64,000 bases of DNA from a virus (Duplodnaviria; Heunggongvirae; Uroviricota; Caudoviricetes): IMG/VR virus record IMGVR_UViG_2724678985_000012. One strand, 5' to 3'. A program made the position numbers and the translations under genes. The notes below the pieces were generated by a model. That model was not told where the DNA came from, did no database searches, and saw only the letters and a program-made list of their open reading frames with translations. Every line of letters begins with the position of its first letter. Position 1 is the first letter of the stretch. Below, piece after piece: positions 1,015 to 55,586 of this stretch.

Positions 1015-1460
1015 TGGGTAACTTTGGAAATTATTTCATTTTTATCATGGCATTTGTTGCCATCATTGACCGTTTCATTTTTCGTCGCAAGAGTGTTGAG
1101 ATTTTGAGTATTGGTGACGCTGTAGTGAAAGAATCCGCTATAGCATTTCCTGTTTCGCTACGTGTTAAGCGAAGCTGGGTCAGCAATGCTCAAATCGAAT
1201 ATTGGTTGCAAGACCTGAAAAATCCATCTGTGGTTATTTCAGGGAAAACGCGACCAGTTGACGCCTCAAAACGCGGTGAGAGAGAAGAGTATTTGCTCAT
1301 CGATACGAAATATCTTGAGCCAACGAAGTGGGATCTGAAAGTCACATTGACTAACGGTAACTGCCGACTGAATCCGCTTTATCGCATTTTCCCTATCAAT
1401 GACTGCATAGAGCGCCAGTTTACGATCGAAAAGCGTGAAGGAGACTGGGATGTCAAATAA
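1014..1460 (+). CDS. hypothetical protein (LydB-like antiholin by position)
   Basis: 148 aa, start overlaps upstream stop (TAATG), N-terminal hydrophobic segment. Confidence 0.3.
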   Translation: MGNFGNYFIFIMAFVAIIDRFIFRRKSVEILSIGDAVVKESAIAFPVSLRVKRSWVSNAQIEYWLQDLKNPSVVISGKTRPVDASKRGEREEYLLIDTKYLEPTKWDLKVTLTNGNCRLNPLYRIFPINDCIERQFTIEKREGDWDVK

Positions 1461-2070
1461 GAATAATTATGTTCTTCTTAATTATGATGAGTTAAACGAA
1501 AAGGGGCTGGCAAAACTCGTCAAAGAAATCAGCAAAGGTGGTTACAAGATAGCGAGGGTGATCCCTGCAAGTAATGGCAGGAAGAAAGATGGGATCATGA
1601 CGCGCACGTTTACTCTTATTGGTATTGATGAACAGACAATGGAAGTTCAGGTTAACGATACCGGTGATATATCTGGGATCAAACTGAATGGTAAAACAGT
1701 ACCGTTCAAGCCAGTAAAAACAATGTCGGCTTTGGGGCAATCTCTTGCGGCTTTATTTAATCGCGGAGCAACTTCTTTCCAGAAGTCATTAGCTCGAAAA
1801 CTTGCTCGTGCAGCAAAAAATATTGATGATGGAAATAAGAAGCGGCAGGGAGTTAAATCTAACGCTCAGAAATTAGCTGAAGCGAAAGAATCACGTGATG
1901 CACTCCGTGAAGATATCGCTAATGCTAACGACAAACTGTCTAAACTCCAGAGCAAGTCAGACAAAGTAATGCAAGATACGGGTAACGTTAAAGCTGCCTT
2001 GTCTCAGGAAGTAGCTAAGACACGTGCTCTTAAAGAAGAAATCGCGCGCCTGGAGGATGAGCATGATTAA
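1450..2070 (+). CDS. hypothetical coiled-coil protein (Dar operon, Hdf-like position)
   Basis: ATG at 1450 with AGGAG SD; C-terminal coiled coil; overlaps neighbours. Confidence 0.35.
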   Translation: MSNKNNYVLLNYDELNEKGLAKLVKEISKGGYKIARVIPASNGRKKDGIMTRTFTLIGIDEQTMEVQVNDTGDISGIKLNGKTVPFKPVKTMSALGQSLAALFNRGATSFQKSLARKLARAAKNIDDGNKKRQGVKSNAQKLAEAKESRDALREDIANANDKLSKLQSKSDKVMQDTGNVKAALSQEVAKTRALKEEIARLEDEHD

Positions 2071-4000
2071 CAATCCTTTACGAATTAATATTCAGTCTAC
2101 TTTTGCTGATACGATCCCCGGCTATATGCCAAGTCGCTGGTCTTCAGAAGAATTAAGCGAAGATGACCTGATTTTTGAGGCGGCGACCTTAGAAGATATT
2201 GAGCTTGCCTATATGGGCAATGAAATTCTGGTTGTGTCTGACGAAGCTATGTTTGAGTCCATAACTACAACCAGAATTCGGTTAGCTCAAACAATGCGAG
2301 CTTTCGTCCGTGCGCTGAATCGTGGCCTGAATGGTACGAATATTATGGCAGGGACTGATGAAGCTGGGACCGATGAAAATGGACGTAATTGTATTGGTGG
2401 TGCGATTATCGGTCGTGTACGTCGGGTAGCTAATATCCCTGTTTTGACCGCGCAGATACCGCTTACTGACGGGCAGAGTACAAGCATAATTTTCCACTCT
2501 CCAACAGCTGACGGGGCAAAAATAAAGAGTAACGACGAGCTTGTTGCATTTCAGTTTTTACTTAATAAGCGTAACGTAACTCACGTTGTCGCCCCGATTG
2601 GTGGGAGAGATGTTTCTTTAAGCCAGGTATGCCAGGCGCTATCTAATTTGATTGAGCGTAACAGCGAAAAATTTAAGAAAGCAAAAGAGCGCCAGGACAA
2701 AATGAAGGCAGATATTGAGAGTTATCTCAATGAAGCAGATAAACTGGCAGAAGAACGGTCAATAATGATTGATCAGGTGGAAGTTGCGCAACGTGGGCTG
2801 ACTGAAAAGCGTGCTGCTCTTACGGAGATGCAAAAAAAACTTGATGCCCAGAAAGCTATCAATGAGGAGTTACAAGCAAAACGCGATAAATTGTTGTCTT
2901 CTAAAGGAGAAAAAACGAAAGAACGAGCGTTTAGTGACCAGCTGCGACATGTAAAACATAATCTTGCCATTGACGGAAAAACAGTGCTGGATAATGGCGC
3001 TGAAGTTAATTATGTCACGTCCGGCAGTGACAATTTCGTTACGATAGTAGCACCTGAAGGTAAATTCAGTATTGATGCCAGTGCTGTCAAAGGAGGCAGT
3101 TTGGCAGATGCTGCAACCAAATTACTTAAAGCCTACCGAGAGCATAACGCAGAAAAATATAAAGTTGATTTGTTACCAGGCCAGCTGGAAGACTCCGAAC
3201 CACCACAGACGGACCCCGAAACAAACCCAGTATCACAACCAGAGAGCCAAGATGTAGGTAAATACCACTATGCACTTCAATCTCGCCCGGCTGGTGTTGG
3301 TGCTGTTCCGGATGGAAATAAAGCCGTGCTTGATCGTCCTGACCAGGCTGATCAGTATTACGAATATGCTCGTCACGGTATCATTACGTATGACCGTAAA
3401 CTGACAGATGAAGAAGTCAGCCAGTACGAGTTGCTTTATCTTCCTGATGAAGATGAGCTGAAAGATTTTGCAGGCCAATTGGTTGCGTCCAGCATGTCGA
3501 AACATATTGATGGCTATGTGGACCTGTTTGGCAGTGACCTGAAAACATTCAAGGCGCAAGTGAAAATTCTTTTCCGCAAAGCGTTTCCAAACGTGGCGTA
3601 TCCACTTAGTGATGGGGAGAACCTTTTCATTATGGACGTGTATAACGCCCTTCAAAATCATTCAAGCGAAGTAAAAACAGAGCATGTGGTTGAGCCAGAA
3701 TCACAACCACAACCACAACCACAACCAGCACCAGAACAGGAGTCGGAGCCAGAAGAAGCGGGTGAATCAGCAAGTGAAGCTGATCAGGAAGCAGATAAAG
3801 CGCTGGAGTACCTGAAATCCGTGCCGGAGCAGTTTACATCCCGCGATCTGACGGTCATCAGTGCTGAACTTGATCATGTGCAGGAAGCAGCAAACGCTCT
3901 AATCAGTGCAGGTCGATACGACGAGAACGAAGCCACTGTGGGTGCAGCAGTTGACTACCTGATCAATATTCTGGCTGAAATTCAGCAGGGAGGTGTTTAA
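2057..4000 (+). CDS. large coiled-coil protein, candidate DarA-like internal head / antirestriction protein
   Basis: about 647 aa, central coiled coil, acidic QP-repeat linker; size and synteny with P1 darA operon. Confidence 0.35.
   Translation: MSMINNPLRINIQSTFADTIPGYMPSRWSSEELSEDDLIFEAATLEDIELAYMGNEILVVSDEAMFESITTTRIRLAQTMRAFVRALNRGLNGTNIMAGTDEAGTDENGRNCIGGAIIGRVRRVANIPVLTAQIPLTDGQSTSIIFHSPTADGAKIKSNDELVAFQFLLNKRNVTHVVAPIGGRDVSLSQVCQALSNLIERNSEKFKKAKERQDKMKADIESYLNEADKLAEERSIMIDQVEVAQRGLTEKRAALTEMQKKLDAQKAINEELQAKRDKLLSSKGEKTKERAFSDQLRHVKHNLAIDGKTVLDNGAEVNYVTSGSDNFVTIVAPEGKFSIDASAVKGGSLADAATKLLKAYREHNAEKYKVDLLPGQLEDSEPPQTDPETNPVSQPESQDVGKYHYALQSRPAGVGAVPDGNKAVLDRPDQADQYYEYARHGIITYDRKLTDEEVSQYELLYLPDEDELKDFAGQLVASSMSKHIDGYVDLFGSDLKTFKAQVKILFRKAFPNVAYPLSDGENLFIMDVYNALQNHSSEVKTEHVVEPESQPQPQPQPAPEQESEPEEAGESASEADQEADKALEYLKSVPEQFTSRDLTVISAELDHVQEAANALISAGRYDENEATVGAAVDYLINILAEIQQGGV
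3703..3728 (+). repeat. in-frame hexanucleotide microsatellite (ACAACC)x4 encoding a QP repeat
   Basis: cacaaccacaaccacaaccacaacca inside the 2057-4000 ORF. Confidence 0.8.
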
Positions 4001-4368
4001 TGACCATCTCTGTTTTAGACCGCCTGAAATTAGGTAAAGAGCTATCAGATCTAATGCAGGCGCAGAAAACTGCGCCAGTATTGCAACGCGTCACCATTGG
4101 TAAGCAGATTGTTGATGTGATGCTGAAATTGGGCCTGGGGACTGCCGCGCAACCGGCAGCGGAACCGCAACAACAGGCTGATCCTGTTGTAGATGAAGTC
4201 CCTAAGATAGTGACTGACTTCCTGGGCGGTGTGTTCACAAAGTCCACACAAATGGAATTTATTGATGCGCTGCGTGGGATCTCAAACTATGTTGGCGAGT
4301 TCCTTACGTTGGAGCAGGCTAAAGAGCAGACCATAAGCTGGGTGAAAGCTAACGGTTATGCCGGGTAA
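4000..4368 (+). CDS. hypothetical protein
   Basis: 122 aa ORF, ATG overlapping upstream stop; hairpin downstream. Confidence 0.4.
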   Translation: MTISVLDRLKLGKELSDLMQAQKTAPVLQRVTIGKQIVDVMLKLGLGTAAQPAAEPQQQADPVVDEVPKIVTDFLGGVFTKSTQMEFIDALRGISNYVGEFLTLEQAKEQTISWVKANGYAG

Positions 4369-4450: not shown

Positions 4451-5848
4451 TTGGAGTGTATTTTGAACAAATCAGTTACTTCTGCGCTTTCCGAGGCCGC
4501 AGATATTAACAGCGTCATTGCTCTGGTTTCTTCATTAGAGAGGAAAGAAACACGCCTGGGGCGAAGTAGCTACGTAGTCACCAGCAAAGGTGCAGAGGTA
4601 AAGACGGCTTTTAAGGTCGTTGACGCCAGCAGTCTGATCATTTCGAACAACCTTGACGGTGCGATTAACCCGGCCTTCCCGGAAGAACTCCAACCACGAG
4701 ATCGTACCCGGCTATCCAGCAAACTCCAGGTTAACCGTATTGCCTCCAATTTACGCCCGGCACAATTAACGGATTCCGGTATGAGCAGCCACGGAGCGCC
4801 TATAGTTGGTCCGGACAACGTTGTTGAATCCGGCAACGGAAGGAGTATGGGTATCTGGCGTGCCTATGAGCAAGGACAGGCGGATGAGTATCGCCAGTAC
4901 CTGATCGACCATGCGAAAGAGTTTGGTCTGAATCCTGACGAAATTTCGCAAATGTCTATGCCCGTACTGGTGCGAGAAAGACTCACAGATGTAGACCGCG
5001 CTCAATTTGCCCGCGATTCAAACATTAGTGATCTGCAAGAGATGGCAGCAAGTGAAAAAGCGTATGCGGATGCGCAATTTCTCACTGAGAGCGTCATGGC
5101 GCTATTTAATCCTTCAGATGATGGAAATCTGCTGGCGCGGTCCAATGATGCGTTTATTCGTGCGTTTTTGCGCGAAATTGGCGATACAGCGATGGCAGGC
5201 TTGCTTACTGCCGATGGGCGTCCCACGAAACAGCTTATCGATCGCATCCAGAATGCAATTTTTGCCAAAGCGTACAAGGATGAAAGGCTTGTTCGGCTGG
5301 TGTCGGAAGAGCCAGATCCGGAAATGCGTAATATCCTGACCGCATTAAATACGGCAGCCAGCGATTTTGCGCAAATGCAGTCGCTGTCTGGCGACGCTCA
5401 CCATGACGCAGTAACAGGCTTAGTGGACGGTATAGAGCAGGTTAATGGCCTGGATACACAGGCGATAGCAGCACTCCAGGAAGCAATTAATCTTGTTCGT
5501 GAAGCCAAAGACAACGGTCAGGCCGTTGAAGAAGTGATCGCCCAAAGGGGGTTATTCGGCGACAGTACACCGGAAGCTGAGGCATTGGCGCTATTCATCG
5601 TAGCAAATAATCGCAGTGCGAAGCGTATGGGGGCAGCATTCAAAAAAATGGCGCAAAAAATCAACGACGAGCTGACTCATAAACAACAGGCATTGGGCGA
5701 TATGTTCGGCGGTGGCGATGTTGATCTGCGTCGTATTTTGTCTGCTGTATCTGATGAAATTGAGGGTGAATTTGGCGAAGGGAAAGGTCTGAACTTTGCT
5801 ATGTTTGAAAATTCTACAGATCTAAATAATTGCCGTACGGAAAACTAA
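4451..5848 (+). CDS. ParB/Srx-like nuclease-domain protein
   Basis: 465 aa; N-terminal motifs PAFPEELQPRDR and VVESGNGRSMGI resemble ParB N-domain boxes; alternative TTG start. Confidence 0.45.
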   Translation: MECILNKSVTSALSEAADINSVIALVSSLERKETRLGRSSYVVTSKGAEVKTAFKVVDASSLIISNNLDGAINPAFPEELQPRDRTRLSSKLQVNRIASNLRPAQLTDSGMSSHGAPIVGPDNVVESGNGRSMGIWRAYEQGQADEYRQYLIDHAKEFGLNPDEISQMSMPVLVRERLTDVDRAQFARDSNISDLQEMAASEKAYADAQFLTESVMALFNPSDDGNLLARSNDAFIRAFLREIGDTAMAGLLTADGRPTKQLIDRIQNAIFAKAYKDERLVRLVSEEPDPEMRNILTALNTAASDFAQMQSLSGDAHHDAVTGLVDGIEQVNGLDTQAIAALQEAINLVREAKDNGQAVEEVIAQRGLFGDSTPEAEALALFIVANNRSAKRMGAAFKKMAQKINDELTHKQQALGDMFGGGDVDLRRILSAVSDEIEGEFGEGKGLNFAMFENSTDLNNCRTEN

Positions 5849-11981: not shown

Positions 11982-14900
11982 TTGGACAAACTACTTCATT
12001 CAATCAGTGAAGCCTCCAGCTTAGGCGAACTGATTGAAATTGTTAGTCGGTTGCATAAATTACGTGCTGTTGCGACCTTTGGCGTCAGGAAAGCCGATGG
12101 CGTCAGTATTCAGAAAACACGCCGGGCAGCAAACAATGCCGCAGTAAATCTTCTTAATTCCCTTCCGCCCGGCTTCGATGGGGCGAAATTAACTGACGAA
12201 CAACGTCAGATTCTTGCCGGGTATACCGGTGAAGGCGGCCTGACAGATGGTGAGGGCAGCCAATACGAATACTACACGCCACAGTTTATGGCTGAAGGTA
12301 TATGGGATCTGTTTGCTGACTACGGTATTGATGGCGGGCACGTACTGGAACCATCAGCGGGCACAGGTATTTTCCAGGAGACAAAACGGCAGGGCATGAT
12401 AATGACCAGCGCCGAACTGTCTCCGATTTCCGGTCGAATAAACCAGCTTTTGCACCCGGAAGACGATGTGAATATCGGGGCGTTTGAGGCGCTGGCGGCG
12501 AAAGACGCAATGTATGATCACGCTGTAGGTAACGTACCGTTTGGTGAAGGGCGTTCCGGTGTCGCCGGGCTTGATCCGGCATATGCAAACGAGAAGAACG
12601 TTGGCAATTACTTTGTGCTGCGCACGATCGACAAGGTTAAGCCTGGTGGGCTTATCGTATTGGTGGTGCCGAATGGCATGACCGATGGTGCGAAATATAA
12701 AAAATTGCGCGATAAAGTCAGCCGTAAAGCGGAATTTTTGGGCGCACATCGTATGCCTTCTGGTACGTTCAGCGAATCCGGTACAGATACCGTGGTGGAC
12801 GTATGGGTATTGCGTAAACACCCGGAAACCTTCCTGGAGATGATCCCCGACACGGATGATTCAACACTCAAATCGGCAAACGTCCTTTGGGATACCTTCC
12901 TCAAAGGAAAATGGTTTACAACCGAAGGGAAGCGATTTGTTTACGGCGACATGGAACGTACCAGCTTCCGCAATACCCTGGTGGTGAAAAAAGACGGTCG
13001 TGTATCCAATGAGTCGATGAAAACCGCGCTATCTCGTCGCTTTGATAGTCGCATCAATTGGGATTTGCTCGGCGTAACTACTCAGGCATGGCAGGGCGCG
13101 AAAGTGGGCGATAAACGCCTTGTAGGCGGTATCTGGCATGAGTTTGATGGTCTGAAATGGGTTAAGGACACGACAACCAAATCCTCCGCGCTTGATGTAA
13201 GTCGATATGGTGTTTCGACGTTTGGCGATCTGCAGATCGCGTTCCAGTCAACAAACGGGATTCTGGCTTTGTCATGGGACCAGATATCGGCGATCGCGTC
13301 CGACTATCCATCGGTTGTCAGTGATGAAGTGGCAGCAATGATTCGCTTTGCTGGCAAGCAGCGAGAAAAAGACAGGGAGCGCGTTATGCGCGGTGCGCTG
13401 ATAGGTCAGTTGATCAACAAGGCACTTGATTTGCGTAACCTGGGTGTGAACGTTGATGACAAACTGGCAGATGCATCCCGCCTGGCGGCAGCAGAAGTTG
13501 CGAAGTATGGACCACCGCACGCCATTAAGCTGAATGGGCTTGCTGAAGCTGGCGCTAAAAACTGGATGACGTTCACTGGCAATGTGAAACAGGATGGTTC
13601 CACTTCTGACCTTCTGGCAGGGCGACTTGATGTAACGGATGGTGCTGCCGGTATTGACTTTACACGTCCTGAACAAGTGATAGCACATCTTTTCAGTGAT
13701 GTAGCCCTTAATCCTATAACGCTGGGAGACTTTCGTGAGGCGTTTGCTGGTGAACTGCCAGAGGACGACGACGCGGCCCTTGAATACCTGGCGAAATTTG
13801 ATGATATCGCTATTGATGGGTATGGCTGCCTGCTGCCGATGGACCGCGCCACCAGCGGCGATATTGCAACCAAAACAGCATTGCTGATGGGCTGGCGTGA
13901 TGCGTCAACAGGTGAGCAGAAAGCGAACTTTGAGCGTCAGTTGGCGAAAATCGAAGAGAAACGTATTTTCACGCCACTAAATAAAGTCACCGTTAATCTG
14001 AATGCCCGCTGGCTGGATCGCCGCTTGATAAAAGAGTTCCTGGCAGAGCAGGGCTATGACGAGTTTAAGTACACTGAACCTGATCTGAAGGTCGTCGATG
14101 GCATTCTGGTATCTCCGGACGATTACGAAGGTAAGGACGGGGTATTTACCGGCTATCAGCTACGAACCGTAAACGGCAAAAACGGGAATGAGTTCAAGAA
14201 GGCCAACAATAAAGACGGCTTCCTGAACCAGTTAGAAAACTACCTGAACGGTGTTAAACCGCGTGGGCAGAACGCTAACGAGTACCTGGATAAAATTGCT
14301 CAACTGGAAGTTAGTTTTAACGACTGGTTACGCACTCACCCGCAGGCTGATCAGATAGCCCGCGAGTATAACGACGCATTCAATGGTTTCATTCCGTTCA
14401 CGCATTCTGACGCACCGCTTGGCCTGGAAGGGCTTAGTGGAAAGCGCATTCCTCTTACTTATCAGAATGAAGAAGTTCGGCGCTTGTCAGAAGATGGGCG
14501 CGGCATCATGGGATTTGGTACCGGGCTGGGTAAAACCACGACCGCGCTTGCGCTTGAGGCGTATAACTTCGAAACAGGTCGCACTAAACGCACGTGTATT
14601 GTTGTTCCGAAGGCGGTTTATCAGAACTGGTATCACGAGGCACAGAGTTTCTACAGTGCTGATGCCTTCGCCAATATGATGTTTATCGGTTTGGATGAAG
14701 TTCGTGATGACAGCGGAAATATTCTGACCGCGCCGGTGCTTGATGAAAATGGCGAACCACGCCTCGACAGTAACGGGCAGCCTCTTACCAGAAATGTTGT
14801 GAAAGAGTCCGCCAGCGCCGTTATCGTTCAGCGCATGAACATGATCCCGTCGTCAAATTGGCGAACGGTCATCATGACAAAAGAACAATTCGCGTCTATC

Positions 14901-17900
14901 CCGCTACGAGAAAAAACCATCGAGGAGAACTCACAGCAAGCTGTCTTTAATGCTGTGGAAATGGGGCGTCTTGACCTGGCGTCCGGTAAACACCGTGATG
15001 CGCAGAAGAAGAACAAGATTAAGGATCAGGCCGCGAATACCGGTACAACGAAGAAGCAGAATATCCCGTACTTTGAGGATATGAACTTCGATAGCGTGAT
15101 TGCCGACGAGGGGCATAACTACCGCAACTCCTTTAATGCCGGGCGTGAAGCGGGACAACTGGCATATTTGCCTAACCCGGCAGTATCCAAGATGGCCCGC
15201 GACATGGCTGTAAAAGCTGCGTACATGATGAAACGCAACAACGGGCGTGGTGTAGTCATGCTGACGGCAACTCCGCTGGTGAACAGTCCGATTGATGCCT
15301 TCAACATGCTGTCTACTGTCATTCCGCAGGAAGAGTGGATGCGCATGGGCATCATTACGCCTGATGATTTCGTTCGTGTGTTTGGCAAAACAGCCACAGT
15401 TCAGGTCCAGAAAATTTCCGGGGAAGTGGAAGAGAAGCAGGGGCTGGTGGGCTTCCAGAACCTTGACGGCCTGCGTGGTATTTTCCATCGTTGGACCACT
15501 CTGAAGACTGCTGCAGATGTCGGAGCAACGGTTAAAATTCCCGACATCATTGAGAACACCTTGCAGATCCCGATGACAGGGGAGCAGGAGACTGCTTATG
15601 AAGAGCTTCGTAAGCGTGCTCAGGAGTTAAGTCGCAATGATGAGCTGACAGTCGATGAAAACGGGCATATCACTAACGACAAACCGGATGATTTCATCTT
15701 CTCCATCATCCGTGACATGGACAAGGTTGCTATAGACCCGGATCTGTATGCCAGTGCGATTACATTCCAGTTCCCCGTTGAGCTTGCAGACCAGGTAAAA
15801 GCTATTGCTGATGCCTTGCCAAAAGTAGCTGGCGGTAAAGTGGCAGATGATGTTGATGAGGCCGAGGAAGACGGCGCTGGCGGGCTGGTCAGTACGCGTA
15901 CCAGCAAGGTAGTGAAGACCGCTTTTAGTGAACATCCGACGCATGTTGAAATACGTGCCAGCATTGAACTGGAAGCTGAAATACTTAAGGCCATTGCGGC
16001 TGCCGGTATTGATATGCAGCAGGTATCGCACCCCATCCCGCCGAAGTATGCCGCGCTGATCGAAAATCTTCGTGAAGGTCTGAAGAACGGTAAGCAGATC
16101 GTCTTTATTGATGAAAAAGCCCAGCACCAGAAGCTGCGCCGTATTATCGCCAGTGCACTGCAAATGCCGGAGCAGGAGATTGGCATTATCAATGCGACGA
16201 CAGTTAGCCAGGCTGGCGGCATCAAGCTGAAGAAGGTGAATAAGCCGACCGAACCTACTCCAAACAAAAACGGTGAATACAAAGAAGGGGCATGGGAAAC
16301 CTACTACAGCAAACTTGCCCAATATGAGGATTATCTCTCAGCCAAAAATGATGCTGGCCTTGAGGGCATGGAAGGTATTGCCGCCGACTATAACGAAGGT
16401 CGCACGCGCATCATAATCTGTAACAAGAAGGCTGAAGTAGGTATTAACCTGCACATCGGGACAACCGATATCCACCACCTGACACTACCCTGGACACCAG
16501 CCAGTATCGACCAACGAAATGGGCGCGGTGCGCGCGTAGGTTCACCGCAAGAGAAGGTCAATGTTCACTACTATTGTGGCAAAGGCACATTCGACGACTT
16601 CCGTCTGGATACGCTGAAACGTAAGAAAGACTGGATCAAGATGGTGATGACCTCCGACATGTCAGAGATCGCCAATGGTGATGCGGATGATGCTGATGAA
16701 CGCGCCATTATGCTGGCGGCAAACCCGGAAGAACGCCGCGCAATCATGGCTCGCCAGGCGCAAGAGCGTGAAGAACGTCTGAAACTGAAAGCACAGCGCG
16801 AGGCCAACAATGCTCTCGATATCTACCTGAAAGCGGCAAACGCCGCCGGAAAAGATATCGGCATGATGGAGACAGAACTGAAAAGCGCGATGGAACAGAT
16901 AGAGTATTACCAGCGCAATCTTGACGACCTGATAAAAGCGGGTACGAACAGGAATGGGCAAAAATACGCGCTTGAGCAGTTGAGTAGCTACAGAAAACGT
17001 GCGCGGGTGCTGAAGTTTGCGATCACCAGGGCAAAAGACGCGGATACCATAATGAAACGCTCTCGTGGTGATGTGGAGCGCGCTATTAAGTCTGGTGTGC
17101 TGGATATCAGTATCGATGTTATTCAGAACCCACAGGAATATATGCGCACTGACAAGAATATCCTGTTGCATAAAGGTAGTTATTACCGTGCAGTCATTGA
17201 TGATCGCGAAACAACAGCGATTGTCCGGGTGGAAAAAATTGACGGTGAAAAAGCACAATACATCTGCCGTATCGCCTGGCTGGATAGAGCAAGTCGTTAC
17301 GCTCGATCACCGGGGTCAATCGTTACATTGCCGTTTGACTCTGTGATTGAAGCGGTAACTTTTGAAGAGGGGGTAGCTGAATCGCGCGCAACGGCTGCGC
17401 GTGGTGTTCAGTGCCACCAGCTATCAACGTCACTTACTCGCGATCAGTTCTATGATGCTATTCGTAACGGAGTAATGAAGGTCACTACAGGCCAGCCTGG
17501 TAGAGCATGGGGCGGTGAACCAGGTATTAAATACTGGGCCTATCGCACCGATGATGGTCAGATCGCGCTGTCATCGACCTATGATGGCATGATAGGACAG
17601 AAAATCGGGCGTACATCGGATATTGCACCAGAGCAGTGGATTTACCCTGATATCAACAATGAGGCGCTGAAGCGTGAAGTGGCAAAAATACAAGCCAGTG
17701 ATAATCCGCTGAATATCGTGGACGGAGAGGGATTCCTCCAGGCATTGTATGGGTATGATTACATCCAGGGAATGCAGGCATGGGGCGCACAAGCAACGAT
17801 GGATGATGTTGCCCAGGAGTTCGAAAACTGGATGGCTGGGCGTGGTCTGTCAGGTCGCTCGCTTAATAAAGTCACTTCTGAAGATATTCTTAGCTTGTTC

Positions 17901-18818
17901 CGCAAACCGTCCGGAGAAGGTCTGGAATCATTCTGGAGGACCGTGCTGGCATACCGTTTATTCCAGGGCAGGATGAAAGCCTTTAGCAATATCGATGATA
18001 TTGAACGGATGTTTAATCAGGTCAAGATAGCGAAAATTAAGACGAAGATCGAAAAAACACGTTCTGCGCTGGTGGCCTGGCGCGATGCATTGTTTGAGCA
18101 ATATAAATCACTCAGTGATGCAGATGGATGGGCGGCATTGGAACAGCTGGCGAATAATGGGGTAGATGGAGCGAAACTCGCCATTGTTCAGGCTGATAAC
18201 CCCCTGGAATCACCGGCAGCACAGTGGATTAAGGTGGGGGCTGTCATCAATGCATTTGATGAAAAATACATTAGTAAGGACGATTTTGCTGATGCTGTTT
18301 CTGTTAATCGCCTGGTAGAAATGGCTACCCGCCGCGCCCGTGAGTTGAAAGACGGCGACTATGTGAATGAGTTGCCGGATACGCTCAAATCGGCAACGTG
18401 GCAGGACTATGTATCGCTGAAAAACGGCGGGGCCACTGAATCAGAGATCGCGGAAAGGCTTGAGCAGGCTGAAAGCAAAAGAGAAGAGCAGGCGGCAGTG
18501 GCTGAAGCCAGAGCTGATGAAGCGGCGAATGATGACTATATCATTGTGGTTAATGATAAGCCGATTCGCGCTAAGGCGCGTGTTCGCGGGCGCTGGTGGA
18601 GCGTCAGCGAGGACGTTGGCGCGGTTTATCTCATTGCCGACCAACCAGGTTCCTCGACAATACGGAACGCCAAAGACGCGATTAAGAAGATTGGCGGGCG
18701 TTTCTGGAATTTTGAAGCAAACCCGGTTGCTGATGTGAACTTTGACCGTCCTGCATGGATGGTATCTACGCGTTACTCGGTAGATGAACTGCGTAAAATA
18801 ATCGCCGATGCGGCCTAA
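11982..18818 (+). CDS. darB: DarB-like giant N6-adenine methyltransferase + DExH helicase fusion (antirestriction)
   Basis: 2278 aa; TTG start with AGAGGGGGA SD; MTase motifs EPSAGTGIF and NVPFGE; helicase motifs GFGTGLGKTT and ADEGHNYRN. Confidence 0.8.
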   Translation: MDKLLHSISEASSLGELIEIVSRLHKLRAVATFGVRKADGVSIQKTRRAANNAAVNLLNSLPPGFDGAKLTDEQRQILAGYTGEGGLTDGEGSQYEYYTPQFMAEGIWDLFADYGIDGGHVLEPSAGTGIFQETKRQGMIMTSAELSPISGRINQLLHPEDDVNIGAFEALAAKDAMYDHAVGNVPFGEGRSGVAGLDPAYANEKNVGNYFVLRTIDKVKPGGLIVLVVPNGMTDGAKYKKLRDKVSRKAEFLGAHRMPSGTFSESGTDTVVDVWVLRKHPETFLEMIPDTDDSTLKSANVLWDTFLKGKWFTTEGKRFVYGDMERTSFRNTLVVKKDGRVSNESMKTALSRRFDSRINWDLLGVTTQAWQGAKVGDKRLVGGIWHEFDGLKWVKDTTTKSSALDVSRYGVSTFGDLQIAFQSTNGILALSWDQISAIASDYPSVVSDEVAAMIRFAGKQREKDRERVMRGALIGQLINKALDLRNLGVNVDDKLADASRLAAAEVAKYGPPHAIKLNGLAEAGAKNWMTFTGNVKQDGSTSDLLAGRLDVTDGAAGIDFTRPEQVIAHLFSDVALNPITLGDFREAFAGELPEDDDAALEYLAKFDDIAIDGYGCLLPMDRATSGDIATKTALLMGWRDASTGEQKANFERQLAKIEEKRIFTPLNKVTVNLNARWLDRRLIKEFLAEQGYDEFKYTEPDLKVVDGILVSPDDYEGKDGVFTGYQLRTVNGKNGNEFKKANNKDGFLNQLENYLNGVKPRGQNANEYLDKIAQLEVSFNDWLRTHPQADQIAREYNDAFNGFIPFTHSDAPLGLEGLSGKRIPLTYQNEEVRRLSEDGRGIMGFGTGLGKTTTALALEAYNFETGRTKRTCIVVPKAVYQNWYHEAQSFYSADAFANMMFIGLDEVRDDSGNILTAPVLDENGEPRLDSNGQPLTRNVVKESASAVIVQRMNMIPSSNWRTVIMTKEQFASIPLREKTIEENSQQAVFNAVEMGRLDLASGKHRDAQKKNKIKDQAANTGTTKKQNIPYFEDMNFDSVIADEGHNYRNSFNAGREAGQLAYLPNPAVSKMARDMAVKAAYMMKRNNGRGVVMLTATPLVNSPIDAFNMLSTVIPQEEWMRMGIITPDDFVRVFGKTATVQVQKISGEVEEKQGLVGFQNLDGLRGIFHRWTTLKTAADVGATVKIPDIIENTLQIPMTGEQETAYEELRKRAQELSRNDELTVDENGHITNDKPDDFIFSIIRDMDKVAIDPDLYASAITFQFPVELADQVKAIADALPKVAGGKVADDVDEAEEDGAGGLVSTRTSKVVKTAFSEHPTHVEIRASIELEAEILKAIAAAGIDMQQVSHPIPPKYAALIENLREGLKNGKQIVFIDEKAQHQKLRRIIASALQMPEQEIGIINATTVSQAGGIKLKKVNKPTEPTPNKNGEYKEGAWETYYSKLAQYEDYLSAKNDAGLEGMEGIAADYNEGRTRIIICNKKAEVGINLHIGTTDIHHLTLPWTPASIDQRNGRGARVGSPQEKVNVHYYCGKGTFDDFRLDTLKRKKDWIKMVMTSDMSEIANGDADDADERAIMLAANPEERRAIMARQAQEREERLKLKAQREANNALDIYLKAANAAGKDIGMMETELKSAMEQIEYYQRNLDDLIKAGTNRNGQKYALEQLSSYRKRARVLKFAITRAKDADTIMKRSRGDVERAIKSGVLDISIDVIQNPQEYMRTDKNILLHKGSYYRAVIDDRETTAIVRVEKIDGEKAQYICRIAWLDRASRYARSPGSIVTLPFDSVIEAVTFEEGVAESRATAARGVQCHQLSTSLTRDQFYDAIRNGVMKVTTGQPGRAWGGEPGIKYWAYRTDDGQIALSSTYDGMIGQKIGRTSDIAPEQWIYPDINNEALKREVAKIQASDNPLNIVDGEGFLQALYGYDYIQGMQAWGAQATMDDVAQEFENWMAGRGLSGRSLNKVTSEDILSLFRKPSGEGLESFWRTVLAYRLFQGRMKAFSNIDDIERMFNQVKIAKIKTKIEKTRSALVAWRDALFEQYKSLSDADGWAALEQLANNGVDGAKLAIVQADNPLESPAAQWIKVGAVINAFDEKYISKDDFADAVSVNRLVEMATRRARELKDGDYVNELPDTLKSATWQDYVSLKNGGATESEIAERLEQAESKREEQAAVAEARADEAANDDYIIVVNDKPIRAKARVRGRWWSVSEDVGAVYLIADQPGSSTIRNAKDAIKKIGGRFWNFEANPVADVNFDRPAWMVSTRYSVDELRKIIADAA

Positions 18819-24250: not shown

Positions 24251-25294
24251 ATGCAGAACAATCCGAACAAATGTCGAACGCTATGGGTGCGGTTATATAT
24301 TTATGTCGTCCTCTGTTTGATTGTGTCACTGGTTCTGTATGTTTGGCTTTTGCCAAATATGATCTCATCTGACAGCACAATACTTGTATTGTTGGGAGTC
24401 CTTCTCGCGCTCATTTACCCGGCTTTTGCAGTAGTCTTTTTTCGTGAAAAAACCAGGAAATTGATTAATGAAAAAACGTTGATTAGTGCAGCGATTATTT
24501 TTGGTTCTTTATGTCTGACCGGATGCGATCGGGTAGAGCCAGGTAACGTAGGGATCAAAGTAAATAAGCTGGGGGATGATAAAGGTATCGGTGAAGTAGT
24601 TGGCGTTGGTCGCTACTGGACAGGCTTGAATACTGAAGTTTATATCTTCCCGACCTTTAAGCAAATGAAGACATACGATGAGCCGTTCAGCTTCCAGATG
24701 AGCGACGGAACAACCATTGGTTACCACATCGGCGTAGCCTACAAGGTTGATCCAGCAAAAGTCACAACGGTATTTCAGACCTATCGCAAAGGTGTAGATG
24801 ATATTACTGATACCGATCTACGCCAGAAGGTTGCAGATGCTCTGAACCGGTTAGCCAGCAAAATGACCACCGACAAATTTATCGACGGTGGCAAATCTGA
24901 ATTGCTTGATGCAGCCCTTAAAGACATTCAGGAAGAAATGACGCCCATCGGTATTCAGGTAATGAGCCTCTCATATGTGGGCAAGCCGGAGTACCCGCCA
25001 ACCGTTATCGACAGCATTAATGCCAAAGTCACGGCGAACCAGAAAACTCTGCAACGCGAGCAGGAAGTCAAGCAACGCGAAGCAGAAGCCAACATGCTGC
25101 GCGCAGAAGCTGCTGGACAGGCCGATGCCATTCGCACAAAAGCCCAGGCTGAAGCTGATGCCATTCGTTTACGCGGTGAGGCTCTGCGCCAGAACCCCGG
25201 CGTTATGGAGTTGGAAGCGATCAACAAATGGAACGGAACGCTACCGCAGTATATGACCAGTAATACCGCTGTTCCGTTTGTTCCGGTGAAATAA
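24251..25294 (+). CDS. SPFH (band-7/prohibitin)-domain membrane protein
   Basis: N-terminal TM/lipobox-like LTGC; SPFH-like core then Ala/Glu-rich coiled coil; true start likely downstream (24358 or later). Confidence 0.55.
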   Translation: MQNNPNKCRTLWVRLYIYVVLCLIVSLVLYVWLLPNMISSDSTILVLLGVLLALIYPAFAVVFFREKTRKLINEKTLISAAIIFGSLCLTGCDRVEPGNVGIKVNKLGDDKGIGEVVGVGRYWTGLNTEVYIFPTFKQMKTYDEPFSFQMSDGTTIGYHIGVAYKVDPAKVTTVFQTYRKGVDDITDTDLRQKVADALNRLASKMTTDKFIDGGKSELLDAALKDIQEEMTPIGIQVMSLSYVGKPEYPPTVIDSINAKVTANQKTLQREQEVKQREAEANMLRAEAAGQADAIRTKAQAEADAIRLRGEALRQNPGVMELEAINKWNGTLPQYMTSNTAVPFVPVK

Positions 25295-28808: not shown

Positions 28809-30316
28809 TGGCTGGCGGGCGCAAGATTAAATGCGTCACCAGCGATCCACGCTGGCGCGATATGGTAATCAAATACCGCTACAACTTTACCCAGGCTGTT
28901 GTCGATATTTTTGGGATGTTCCCCTCCCACCAGCAGCAGCAGATCATTCAGTCAGTGCAGGAAACGGGGAGTAGGACGACCGTCACGTCCGGACACGGAA
29001 CGGGGAAGTCGTCCCTTACCGCGATGTTGCTGTTGATTTTTATGATCCTGTTCCCCGATGCCCGTGTCATCATTGTTGCTAACAAGATAGGCCAGGTAAA
29101 AACAGGCGTATTCAAATACGTTAAACAGTATTGGGCGAATGCAGTTAAGCGTCATGGGTGGTTGCAGACCTATTTTGTCCTCTCTGACACCATGTTTTAT
29201 GAGCGCTCCCGTAAGGGGATTTGGGAAGTTCTCTGCAAAGGTTATCGACTCGGCAACGAAGAAGCGCTGGCGGGGGAACACGCGGCACATTTGCTTCTAA
29301 TTCTGGACGAAGCATCTGGTATATCTGATAAGGCGATCGGCGTAATGACCGGTGCTCTTACTGAAGAAGATAACCGGATGTTGATGCTATCCCAGCCAAC
29401 AAGGCCAAGTGGTTATTTCTACGATTCGCACCATTCTCAAGCAAAAACCCCAGACAACCCGAAAGGGATCTGGACAGCAATTGTTCTTAACTCGGAAGAA
29501 TCACCGTTCGTCACACCACAATTCATCAAGCAGAAGCTTCTGGAATATGGCGGGCGCGATTCTATTGAGTACATGGTCAAGGTGCTTGGTCAGTTCCCAC
29601 GAGAAATTAACGGCTATTTGCTTGGTCGTGATGAATGCGATCGCGCTGCTCGCCGCAAGGTGTTGTTGGAGAAAAACTGGGGATGGGTGGCAACGGCTGA
29701 CGTTGGTAATGGGCGAGATAAGTCGGTCCTCAACATCTGCAAAGTATCTGGTCACAGGGATAAGCGGCGCGTTGTTAACTTTAAGGTAATGGAGATGCCT
29801 GGCACTATGGACCCATTGGCCTTTGCTGACTTCATATATAACGAATGTACGCCGGAAAAATACCCGAATATAACAATCGCGGTTGATGCTGATGGTTTTG
29901 GTTCTGATACGTGTGCGCAGTTGGTGCGTCGTGGTGCGAACCCGGTACGTATTCGGTGGGGAAAACCCATGTTTGCGAACAAAGACAGGGAGCGATTTGT
30001 TAATCAGCGTGCCTACGCAAATATTATGGCGCGAGATGCCATAAAGTCAGGGCGTATGCGGATAGACAGTGACCCTAAAACGGCAGAGCAAGCGTCAAAA
30101 ATCCCCTTTTTACTGAATGAAGAAGGGAAAATGGCGATGATGCGCAAAGAGCACATGCGGCAAAAGCTAAACATCAAATCGCCTGACCGATGGGATACCT
30201 ACTGCTTCACTATGCTGGTGGACTATGTGCCTGCTAATGAAGATATTGGTGCCGAAATGGCAACTTTCCGAGATCAGGTTCTGGCGGATATCGAAATGCC
30301 GGATCTGGATATATAA
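28808..30316 (+). CDS. pacB: terminase large subunit PacB-like
   Basis: 502 aa; Walker A SGHGTGKSS and Walker B LLLILDEASG. Confidence 0.75.
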   Translation: MAGGRKIKCVTSDPRWRDMVIKYRYNFTQAVVDIFGMFPSHQQQQIIQSVQETGSRTTVTSGHGTGKSSLTAMLLLIFMILFPDARVIIVANKIGQVKTGVFKYVKQYWANAVKRHGWLQTYFVLSDTMFYERSRKGIWEVLCKGYRLGNEEALAGEHAAHLLLILDEASGISDKAIGVMTGALTEEDNRMLMLSQPTRPSGYFYDSHHSQAKTPDNPKGIWTAIVLNSEESPFVTPQFIKQKLLEYGGRDSIEYMVKVLGQFPREINGYLLGRDECDRAARRKVLLEKNWGWVATADVGNGRDKSVLNICKVSGHRDKRRVVNFKVMEMPGTMDPLAFADFIYNECTPEKYPNITIAVDADGFGSDTCAQLVRRGANPVRIRWGKPMFANKDRERFVNQRAYANIMARDAIKSGRMRIDSDPKTAEQASKIPFLLNEEGKMAMMRKEHMRQKLNIKSPDRWDTYCFTMLVDYVPANEDIGAEMATFRDQVLADIEMPDLDI

Positions 30317-54870: not shown

Positions 54871-55586
54871 GCATCGCATTTAATTTTTTCAAGTGAATCA
54901 GAAAGCTTTGAGAGAAGCTCCTCAAGTGTTTCCCTGTCATTTGTATCACCCGAACGAAAAGATGAGTTTTTCACGGCGGTAAAAAATTCATAAAAATCAT
55001 CCACCGAATTTAAGCTCTCACCTTTCTCTCTATATAATTTAATAATATGAATGATATCGCTATCCACACATTCAATCTGTTTCCTAATTTCTTTAAGCCG
55101 TTTTTCTAATGATTCAAGTTCTTCTTCTTCTTGTTCAATATACTTTTTAACGTCTCTCTGCTTCTTAATGGCTTTCTTAATATCACTGTTAATTGTCCTT
55201 ATTTGTTCTTTTTTATTTGCAATTTCATCTATTTTTCTTAATTTAGCATATAATGTGCTTGTCACCAAAGAAATTAACAGGGTTAACAGTGGCGCTAATA
55301 TTGACGCCACAACACCATAAATAAAAGGCAAAACAAAATGAGCTACGAACGATGGTAAAAAAAGATTCCCCAATAATGGGATCTTTTCCCCGACAAACAC
55401 TATAGATAATGTATACATAACATCATCTTTTGACTTCAGTAATATAAATATGTCTCGCCAATTAGAAATTAAAAACGAAATAAAAATGTAGGCAAAAACC
55501 TTATTAAACAACTTATCTTTTACAGCATCTTCTAACAGATTTTGGGTAGAGGAGTTTTCCTTTTCTATTGATGAATCAGCGCTCAT
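54852..55586 (-). CDS. AT-rich membrane protein: N-terminal TM helices + C-terminal coiled coil (candidate abortive-infection / exclusion effector)
   Basis: 244 aa; about 33% GC; own promoter region; terminator hairpin upstream. Confidence 0.45.
   Translation of the reverse strand: MSADSSIEKENSSTQNLLEDAVKDKLFNKVFAYIFISFLISNWRDIFILLKSKDDVMYTLSIVFVGEKIPLLGNLFLPSFVAHFVLPFIYGVVASILAPLLTLLISLVTSTLYAKLRKIDEIANKKEQIRTINSDIKKAIKKQRDVKKYIEQEEEELESLEKRLKEIRKQIECVDSDIIHIIKLYREKGESLNSVDDFYEFFTAVKNSSFRSGDTNDRETLEELLSKLSDSLEKIKCDANKKVG

Follow-up and report, generated by a model that had tools for sequence, protein, structure and literature searches.

The Lindstedt MLVA scheme reportedly relies on VNTRs with 6-bp units that mutate by slippage. 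STTR6, a VNTR used in MLVA, is located on the prophage Gifsy-1 (PMC3901673). On the protein side, DarA of phage P1 is packaged into the head, is processed at its N-terminus and protects the DNA from type I restriction; in the cryo-EM structure of the P1 virion, DarA was modelled only at residues 70–382, while residues 383–639 were invisible, 'possibly due to its flexibility' (PMC12810830). Does a hexanucleotide repeat inside a darA gene belong with such VNTRs, and what would a change in its copy number do to the protein? The repeat considered here lies in a 64 kb stretch of DNA, which was analysed as a whole and is referred to as the window. We consider it likely that it is an in-frame, slippage-type (CAACCA)n VNTR in a disordered linker of DarA, nearly neutral in its consequences, and a strain marker rather than a switch. 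That an in-frame repeat should be polymorphic within a disordered linker is nothing unusual; no description of this particular locus was found in the literature searched.

The mechanical open reading frame that contains the repeat opens at GTG 2024; the annotation of phage D6 has the gene start at ATG 2063. Counted from this ATG, the gene and its neighbours are laid out as follows.

1435..2070, plus strand: homologue of hdf (a DarA_N-domain protein), partner of DarA; Pfam DarA_N at 64.8 bits, annotated in D6 as 'similar to P1 hdf'.
2063..4000, plus strand: darA, 645 amino acids from the ATG; NCBIfam, Pfam, the D6 annotation and PDB 9ukm_I.
4000–4368, plus strand: homologue of ddrA; D6 annotation.
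4451–5848, plus strand: homologue of ddrB; D6 annotation and Pfam ddrB-ParB at 144 bits.

The predicted product matches the NCBIfam equivalog NF052326 ('antirestriction phage head protein DarA') with 1137.7 bits over residues 2–645, against a cutoff of 350, and contains the Pfam domains DarA_N (residues 62–201, 136.6 bits) and DarA_C (residues 399–462, 68.2 bits), each with a cutoff of 27. P1 DarA shares 38% identity with it by tblastn. A phmmer search of the PDB retrieved the P1 DarA chain 9ukm_I over residues 35–645 (E=7.2e-122), and Foldseek, used with the predicted model, matched the same chain (E=2.7e-17). The operon order in the window, lydA-lydB-hdf-darA-ddrA-ddrB, matches the D6 annotation: cin, lydA, lydB and hdf lie upstream of darA, and ddrA, ddrB and the portal gene downstream. 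An open reading frame for a DarB-like protein of 2278 amino acids is found at 11982–18818 of the window. Judged by family models, homology to P1 and gene order, the gene that carries the repeat is a genuine darA, and the 'DarA-like' of the preliminary description is correct.

The darA of the window is 96% identical to that of phage D6 and 100% identical to the gene on several E. coli plasmids of ~92 kb. Among complete E. coli genomes, 86 of 5426 contain darA matches; these fall in 90 places, all of them on plasmids and none on a chromosome. In PLSDB, 113 plasmid records match, all but one of which (112/113) are typed as non-mobilizable. Because of the identity to D6, the restriction of matches to plasmids and the D6 gene order, the source element of the window is, by sequence comparison, assigned to the D6-like, P1-type phage-plasmids. 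Such elements occur in E. coli, Salmonella and Shigella, and the D6 lineage forms a branch of the P1-like phage-plasmids separate from P1.

Direct reading of the window gives atCACAACCACAACCACAACCACAACCAgc for positions 3700–3729. In and beside this stretch we distinguish three features.

3702..3727, plus strand: perfect period-6 tandem tract of 26 nt, 4.33 copies of CACAAC; direct reading, Tandem Repeats Finder and scan.
3704..3727, plus strand: in-frame (CAA CCA)x4, encoding (Gln-Pro)x4, Gln548–Pro555 of DarA; translation in the frame of ATG 2063.
3740..3751, plus strand: a second, imperfect two-copy hexanucleotide, GAGTCG GAGCCA, encoding Glu-Ser-Glu-Pro; comparison of linker sequences.

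Four complete ACAACC units occupy 3703–3726 within the perfect tract. Tandem Repeats Finder scores 3702–3727 at 52, with 100% matches, and in our own scan of the 64 kb this tract is the sole perfect repeat with a period of at least 4 that reaches 4 copies or more. When the window was simulated 300 times under a first-order Markov model, no perfect repeat of period 4–9 with at least 4 copies arose. In the open reading frame 2024/2063..4000 on the plus strand, the codons read TCA (CAA CCA)x4 GCA CCA; the residues around the repeat are EPES-QPQPQPQP-APEQESEPEE, and the longer translated context is VVEPES-QPQPQPQP-APEQESEPEEAGES. An in-frame (ACAACC)x4 hexanucleotide encoding a QP repeat was what the preliminary description had reported, and sequence, Tandem Repeats Finder and translation all agree with it. 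The span given there was 3703–3728; its start stands and its end does not, since it lies two bases past the last full unit and one past the perfect tract. The hexanucleotide at 3740..3751 is present in a single copy only in many relatives, as seen in the linker comparison. An overlapping gene on the opposite strand was rejected, as the open reading frame list of the window holds no minus-strand frame of at least 80 amino acids over 3702–3727. As a separate observation, the (GGTTGT)n strand of the repeat might form a two-tetrad G-quadruplex.

Where in the protein does the repeat lie? Two regions of the C-terminal part of DarA are relevant.

3674..3769, plus strand: acidic, Pro/Gln/Glu-rich linker that holds the repeat, residues 538–569, predicted to be disordered; AlphaFold pLDDT <50 and variability among homologues.
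3776..3988, plus strand: conserved C-terminal three-helix bundle of DarA, residues 572–642; AlphaFold of the domain alone and invariant alignment columns.

In the AlphaFold model the linker sits between the confident helices 517–539 and 572–590, the latter being the first of a C-terminal three-helix unit (572–590, 596–616 and 619–642). The model of full-length DarA was built on a shallow alignment of 30 sequences and has a whole-protein pTM of 0.29. The last 83 residues, folded alone, gave a mean pLDDT of 86.7 and a pTM of 0.71, with helices at positions 10–28, 34–54 and 57–81 of the fragment. Fold searches with the C-terminal bundle returned generic helical bundles only. A second Pro-rich, low-confidence linker is modelled at residues 375–395. 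According to these models, the linker at 538–569 is predicted to join the DarA_C-containing body to a separately folding C-terminal bundle. Since residues 383–639 of P1 DarA are invisible in the virion, the repeat would belong to the mobile portion of DarA and not to the one bound to the capsid wall.

The counterpart of the linker in P1 DarA is 'QPEPAPAQPD', 19 residues shorter than that of the window. Homologues from Enterobacter, Citrobacter, Pantoea, Klebsiella aerogenes and others carry runs of Glu-Pro, Ala-Pro, Gln-Pro or Thr-Pro of very different lengths, and in one homologue lineage an independent (Ala-Pro) expansion is found at the linker, with five copies in P0006 and two in P0013. 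Given these widely differing runs and the short linker of P1, linker length seems to be tolerated. The word 'linker', applied to the QP repeat from the outset, is a well-supported description of its surroundings: pLDDT stays below 50 at 538–569, confident helices flank the segment, and P1 has a shorter stretch in its place.

To what extent does copy number differ among relatives? Match lengths in a search with the whole darA gene were mostly 6 nt steps apart, and a 190-nt query (3621–3810) localised the variation around the repeat; the matched lengths in 109 PLSDB records were 172, 178, 184, 190, 196, 202, 208, 214, 220 and 238 nt. The loci read numbered 34 in total, namely 25 representative plasmid or phage loci and nine virome or metagenome contigs obtained by a pattern scan that covered alleles of at least 3 copies. 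In these 34 related loci ACAACC is present in 2, 3, 4, 5, 6, 7, 8, 9 or 12 copies, and every length difference within the repeat is a multiple of 6 nt. The alleles are distributed as follows.

0 copies (no ACAACC unit): D6 and D6-type elements, which have an imperfect proto-repeat, and the Shigella type.
2 copies: many loci, ~29 PLSDB records by length class.
3 copies: L004.
4 copies: the window, nine further records identical over the 190-nt stretch, and five IMG/VR contigs.
5 copies: L002, L003 and L032.
6 copies: L007 and L033.
7 copies: L015.
8 copies: L019 and L020.
9 copies: L006 and CP082672.
12 copies: L005.

One ACAACT unit interrupts the repeat in the alleles L009, L025, L034 and L035. 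All sampled alleles of 7–12 copies are from Salmonella plasmids. The preliminary description had proposed that repeat number be compared across related genomes; the comparison yields a range of 2–12 copies in steps of 6 nt, and the number is not invariant, as it differs even between loci with identical flanks. It had also anticipated that changes in number would alter the length of the linker and leave the frame intact, and this holds, the unit being two codons and the differences being whole units only. Its phrase 'possible source of variation', which made no functional claim, is a fair one.

Are units gained and lost in place? We compared 3 kb around the repeat, with the linker excluded. L002, with 5 copies, has the same flanks as the window with its 4, and a single base separates both from L007, which has 6. 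Likewise, L005 (12 copies), L015 (7 copies) and L019 (8 copies) have identical flanks, with one base different in L006 (9 copies). The interrupted alleles L009 and L025 are separated by two flank substitutions and have 3 and 5 pure units, respectively, before the interruption. The non-repeat sequence of the linker itself falls into at least 4 haplotypes, each with its own copy-number series.

Window type: 2, 3, 4, 5 and 6 copies.
Salmonella type (Ser to Pro just upstream): 7, 8, 8, 9, 9 and 12 copies.
Haplotype '...EHMV...EPEETG...': 2, 4 and 6 copies.
Interrupted type: 3+1+1, 5+1+1, 6+1+1, and one in which the interrupting unit is itself duplicated.

Copy-number change on flanks that differ by 0–1 substitutions, together with a series in each of four haplotypes, argues that units are repeatedly gained and lost in place, and the repeat is, on the evidence of these alignments, a recurrently mutating VNTR. 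Clonal sets carry one allele each: three S. Thompson plasmids have 5 copies, three RHB39 plasmids have 5, and ten records have 4. On the timescale of an outbreak, then, the tract is not hypermutable. The 2-copy allele is found in ~29 records from diverged backgrounds, and the sampled alleles of at least 7 copies, which have near-identical flanks, are all different (7, 8, 9 and 12) in what is a small sample that carries no phylogenetic correction. These observations are compatible with an instability that increases with tract length.

At the site of the repeat, D6 and D6-type plasmids read TCA CAC CCA CAA ACA GCA. This proto-repeat amounts to two imperfect copies, and two point changes separate it from the 2-copy allele, CAA CCA CAA CCA. 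Plausibly, the proto-repeat would first have become a perfect 2-copy tract, which then expanded. A single codon pair is used in all repeat units, as expected from duplication of the DNA and not from selection on the amino acids. Slipped-strand mispairing at replication is the most likely route by which whole units would be gained or lost, presumably the more readily the longer the tract. Each such change should add or remove Gln-Pro dipeptides and never break the frame, so that the effect would be one of spacer length alone, from 4 to 24 repeat residues in an extended, flexible linker. If polyproline-II-like, a spacer of 4–24 residues spans roughly 12 to 75 Angstrom. In view of the apparent tolerance of linker length, such length polymorphism is most probably tolerated and close to neutral. 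Phase variation of the on/off type was rejected, as the unit is two codons inside a coding sequence and the alleles keep the frame; with a unit of 6 nt, on/off switching is impossible.

Could the differences in copy number simply be artefacts of sequencing, or of the assembly of repetitive DNA? Clear errors do occur nearby, since single-base homopolymer indels break the frame close to the repeat in the L018 and L020 records. The repeat differences, however, consist exclusively of whole 6-nt units, in tracts of 12–72 nt that any read easily spans, and the same alleles were obtained by separate laboratories from independent clonal isolates (4 copies in ten records, 5 in seven) and are met again in IMG/VR and metagenome contigs. 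Because only whole units change, the tracts are short, and the same alleles come from different laboratories, different platforms and metagenomes, we consider error to be highly improbable. To our knowledge, no sequencing platform has hexanucleotide units as an error mode. Nor do we give more than very slight credence to the idea that old alleles were merely redistributed, with no new slippage, by the exchange of linker cassettes between co-infecting phage-plasmids. Recombination is reported to be frequent in P1-like phage-plasmids (PMC10879196), which speaks for such exchange, and the linker region of D6-type elements does resemble a replaced segment; yet pairs that differ in copy number only show 0–1 differences in the 3 kb flanks and an identical non-repeat linker, and a separate copy-number series in each of four haplotypes is not what cassette exchange would be expected to leave behind.

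A reading that invokes selection would make the repeat a contingency-type locus, with copy number tuning the reach of the C-terminal bundle in the capsid, and thereby the recruitment of Dar proteins, the restriction spectrum or the head ratio. The proteins named as recruited are DdrA, DdrB, DarB and Ulx, and the restriction systems are those of type I. In favour of tuning, every other Dar protein of P1 depends on DarA for its packaging, as does normal head size (PMC12810830); X-Pro expansions have arisen in parallel at the same site elsewhere, as in the five against two Ala-Pro copies of P0006 and P0013; long Glu-Pro and Ala-Pro runs are found in the DarA homologues of Pantoea and Klebsiella aerogenes; the 190 nt around the linker are 79% identical to those of D6-type elements, as against 96% for the whole gene; and in our sample the alleles of 7–12 copies are confined to Salmonella plasmids. 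Yet P1 DarA functions with a linker that is 19 residues shorter, and the wide spread of length and sequence among homologues resembles relaxed constraint. The association with Salmonella, moreover, concerns one linker haplotype and may reflect simple descent, and an in-frame unit brings about a graded change in length and no switching. On balance we regard adaptive tuning maintained by selection as unlikely. The parallel X-Pro expansions in other lineages could nevertheless reflect selection instead of neutrality. It is doubtful, if conceivable, that the Gln-Pro repeat and the parallel Ala-Pro and Glu-Pro expansions together form a selected 'length dial' for the reach of the C-terminal bundle from the capsid wall. 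Were this true, changes in length would alter which Dar cargo is packaged, or how much of it, or shift the balance between large and small heads, and phage-plasmid populations would carry heritable and rapidly reversible anti-restriction variation.

We thus favour a nearly neutral VNTR in the DarA linker, and as such the repeat provides a PCR-sizeable marker that separates otherwise near-identical D6-like phage-plasmids, elements often met in E. coli and Salmonella isolated from food animals or from patients. In the protein, it marks the boundary of the predicted separately folding C-terminal domain, which in P1 is invisible to cryo-EM. Its natural length variants, with 4 to 24 linker residues, may offer a handle on the tethered domain in Dar packaging and head-size control.

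How does the locus compare with known systems? The (Glu-Pro)n/(Lys-Pro)n segments of TonB and the EP repeats of trypanosome procyclin are extended, non-globular X-Pro spacers between functional parts. Their likeness to the DarA linker is compositional; in DarA the pair is Gln-Pro, and the setting is the inside of a phage capsid instead of the cell envelope. Membership of the procyclin/PARP family (Trypan_PARP, PF05887) was rejected, as the match reaches 16.5 bits against a cutoff of 100 (E=0.0087) and is compositional; a Pfam match of the linker and C-terminus to YflT (18.6 bits, below cutoff) was treated in the same way. The Trypan_PARP label appears on many DarA homologues in precomputed annotations.

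P1 DarA (PDB 9ukm/9vz0; PLoS Pathog 2026, PMC12810830) resembles the protein of the window in its domain order, its operon and the possession of a Pro-rich linker ahead of a conserved C-terminal helical domain, but its short linker is encoded without a tandem DNA repeat, and the two proteins are only 38% identical. The phase-variable contingency loci of Haemophilus and Neisseria share with the darA repeat the proposed slipped-strand mispairing and a position inside a gene engaged in host-parasite conflict; they switch genes on and off, whereas the 6-nt unit of darA gives a graded linker length. The MLVA VNTRs of Salmonella Typhimurium and E. coli O157, such as STTR6 and the plasmid-borne STTR10pl, resemble the darA repeat: in both cases short tandem repeats are carried by mobile elements, the hosts are the same, and copy number varies between close relatives. 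Unlike those loci, the darA repeat resides on a D6-like phage-plasmid, inside the gene for a virion and anti-restriction protein, and its range of 2–12 copies is modest.

Is the (ACAACC)x4 repeat the only place at which the DarA linker changes length in frame? Comparison of the linker with its relatives revealed another in-frame 6-nt indel polymorphism besides the main repeat, at window 3740-3751. Here the window reads GAGTCG GAGCCA (Glu-Ser-Glu-Pro), and GAGCCA alone occupies the equivalent position in many related loci (L009, L014, L017, L025, L027, L028, L030 and L033-L035). The 172-nt class of matched lengths around the repeat arises because of this GAGCCA-only form.

Alleles of 7-12 copies were all found in Salmonella plasmids, on one common linker haplotype (L005, L006, L015, L019, L020 and CP082672). 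Directly upstream of the repeat this haplotype has CCA (Pro) in place of TCA (Ser), which makes the periodic tract a few bases longer. The restriction of these long alleles to Salmonella plasmids may reflect host, haplotype or chance. An ACAACT (Gln-Leu) unit interrupts the repeat in L009, L025, L035 and L034 (OFLR01000049.1). In L034 the interrupting unit is itself present in duplicate, and therefore imperfect units have also been moved by slippage. The minus strand of window 3702-3727 is (GGTTGT)n, which at four or more copies provides four GG runs with 4-nt loops. From its sequence this is a potential two-tetrad G-quadruplex, and replication slippage might be promoted by such a structure. 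Other tandem repeats of the window are the following.

25051-25092: tandem repeat, 21-nt unit x2
28931-28942: short tandem repeat, (CAG)x4
55119-55132: short tandem repeat, (TTC)x4.7

A first Pro-rich, low-confidence linker lies upstream of the DarA_C domain (residues 375-395, window ~3185-3247). It too varies between lineages in sequence and length: the stretch compared measures 47 aa in L016 versus 41 aa, and the DarA homologue P0002 lacks 7 residues.

Frameshifts disrupt darA in some records (L004, L018, L020). The darA CDS of ETEC1732 is in two pieces, and the Mbandaka and Sa1423 plasmids carry darA with single-base homopolymer indels. The frameshifts in L004, L018 and L020 are probably assembly errors, the alternative being that these genes are pseudogenes.

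Beyond darA, the window encodes a further Dar component.

11982-18818, + strand: 2278-aa ORF, DarB-like antirestriction protein with N6 DNA methylase, SNF2/ResIII and helicase C domains

The window therefore holds a full Dar system. In L022 (NZ_CP032875.1) a TnpB-family RNA-guided endonuclease gene (2571-3590) lies directly downstream of ddrA, in the place held by ddrB in other elements.

At the site equivalent to window 3704-3733, Shigella, E. fergusonii and Salmonella sequences of a related lineage (L013, L016) have (GCACCA)n, encoding (Ala-Pro)n. Ala-Pro is present five times in the DarA homologue P0006 versus twice in P0013, and its occurrence at the Gln-Pro site is an X-Pro dipeptide expansion of independent origin. 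The D6-type linker, found in phage D6 itself (L001) and in L021-L023, reads TCA CAC CCA CAA ACA GCA at the equivalent of window 3701-3730, a putative imperfect two-copy proto-repeat. Identity between D6-type and window sequences is ~79% over 190 nt around the linker versus 96% over the whole gene, and the linker is therefore either a local divergence hot spot or a replaced segment.
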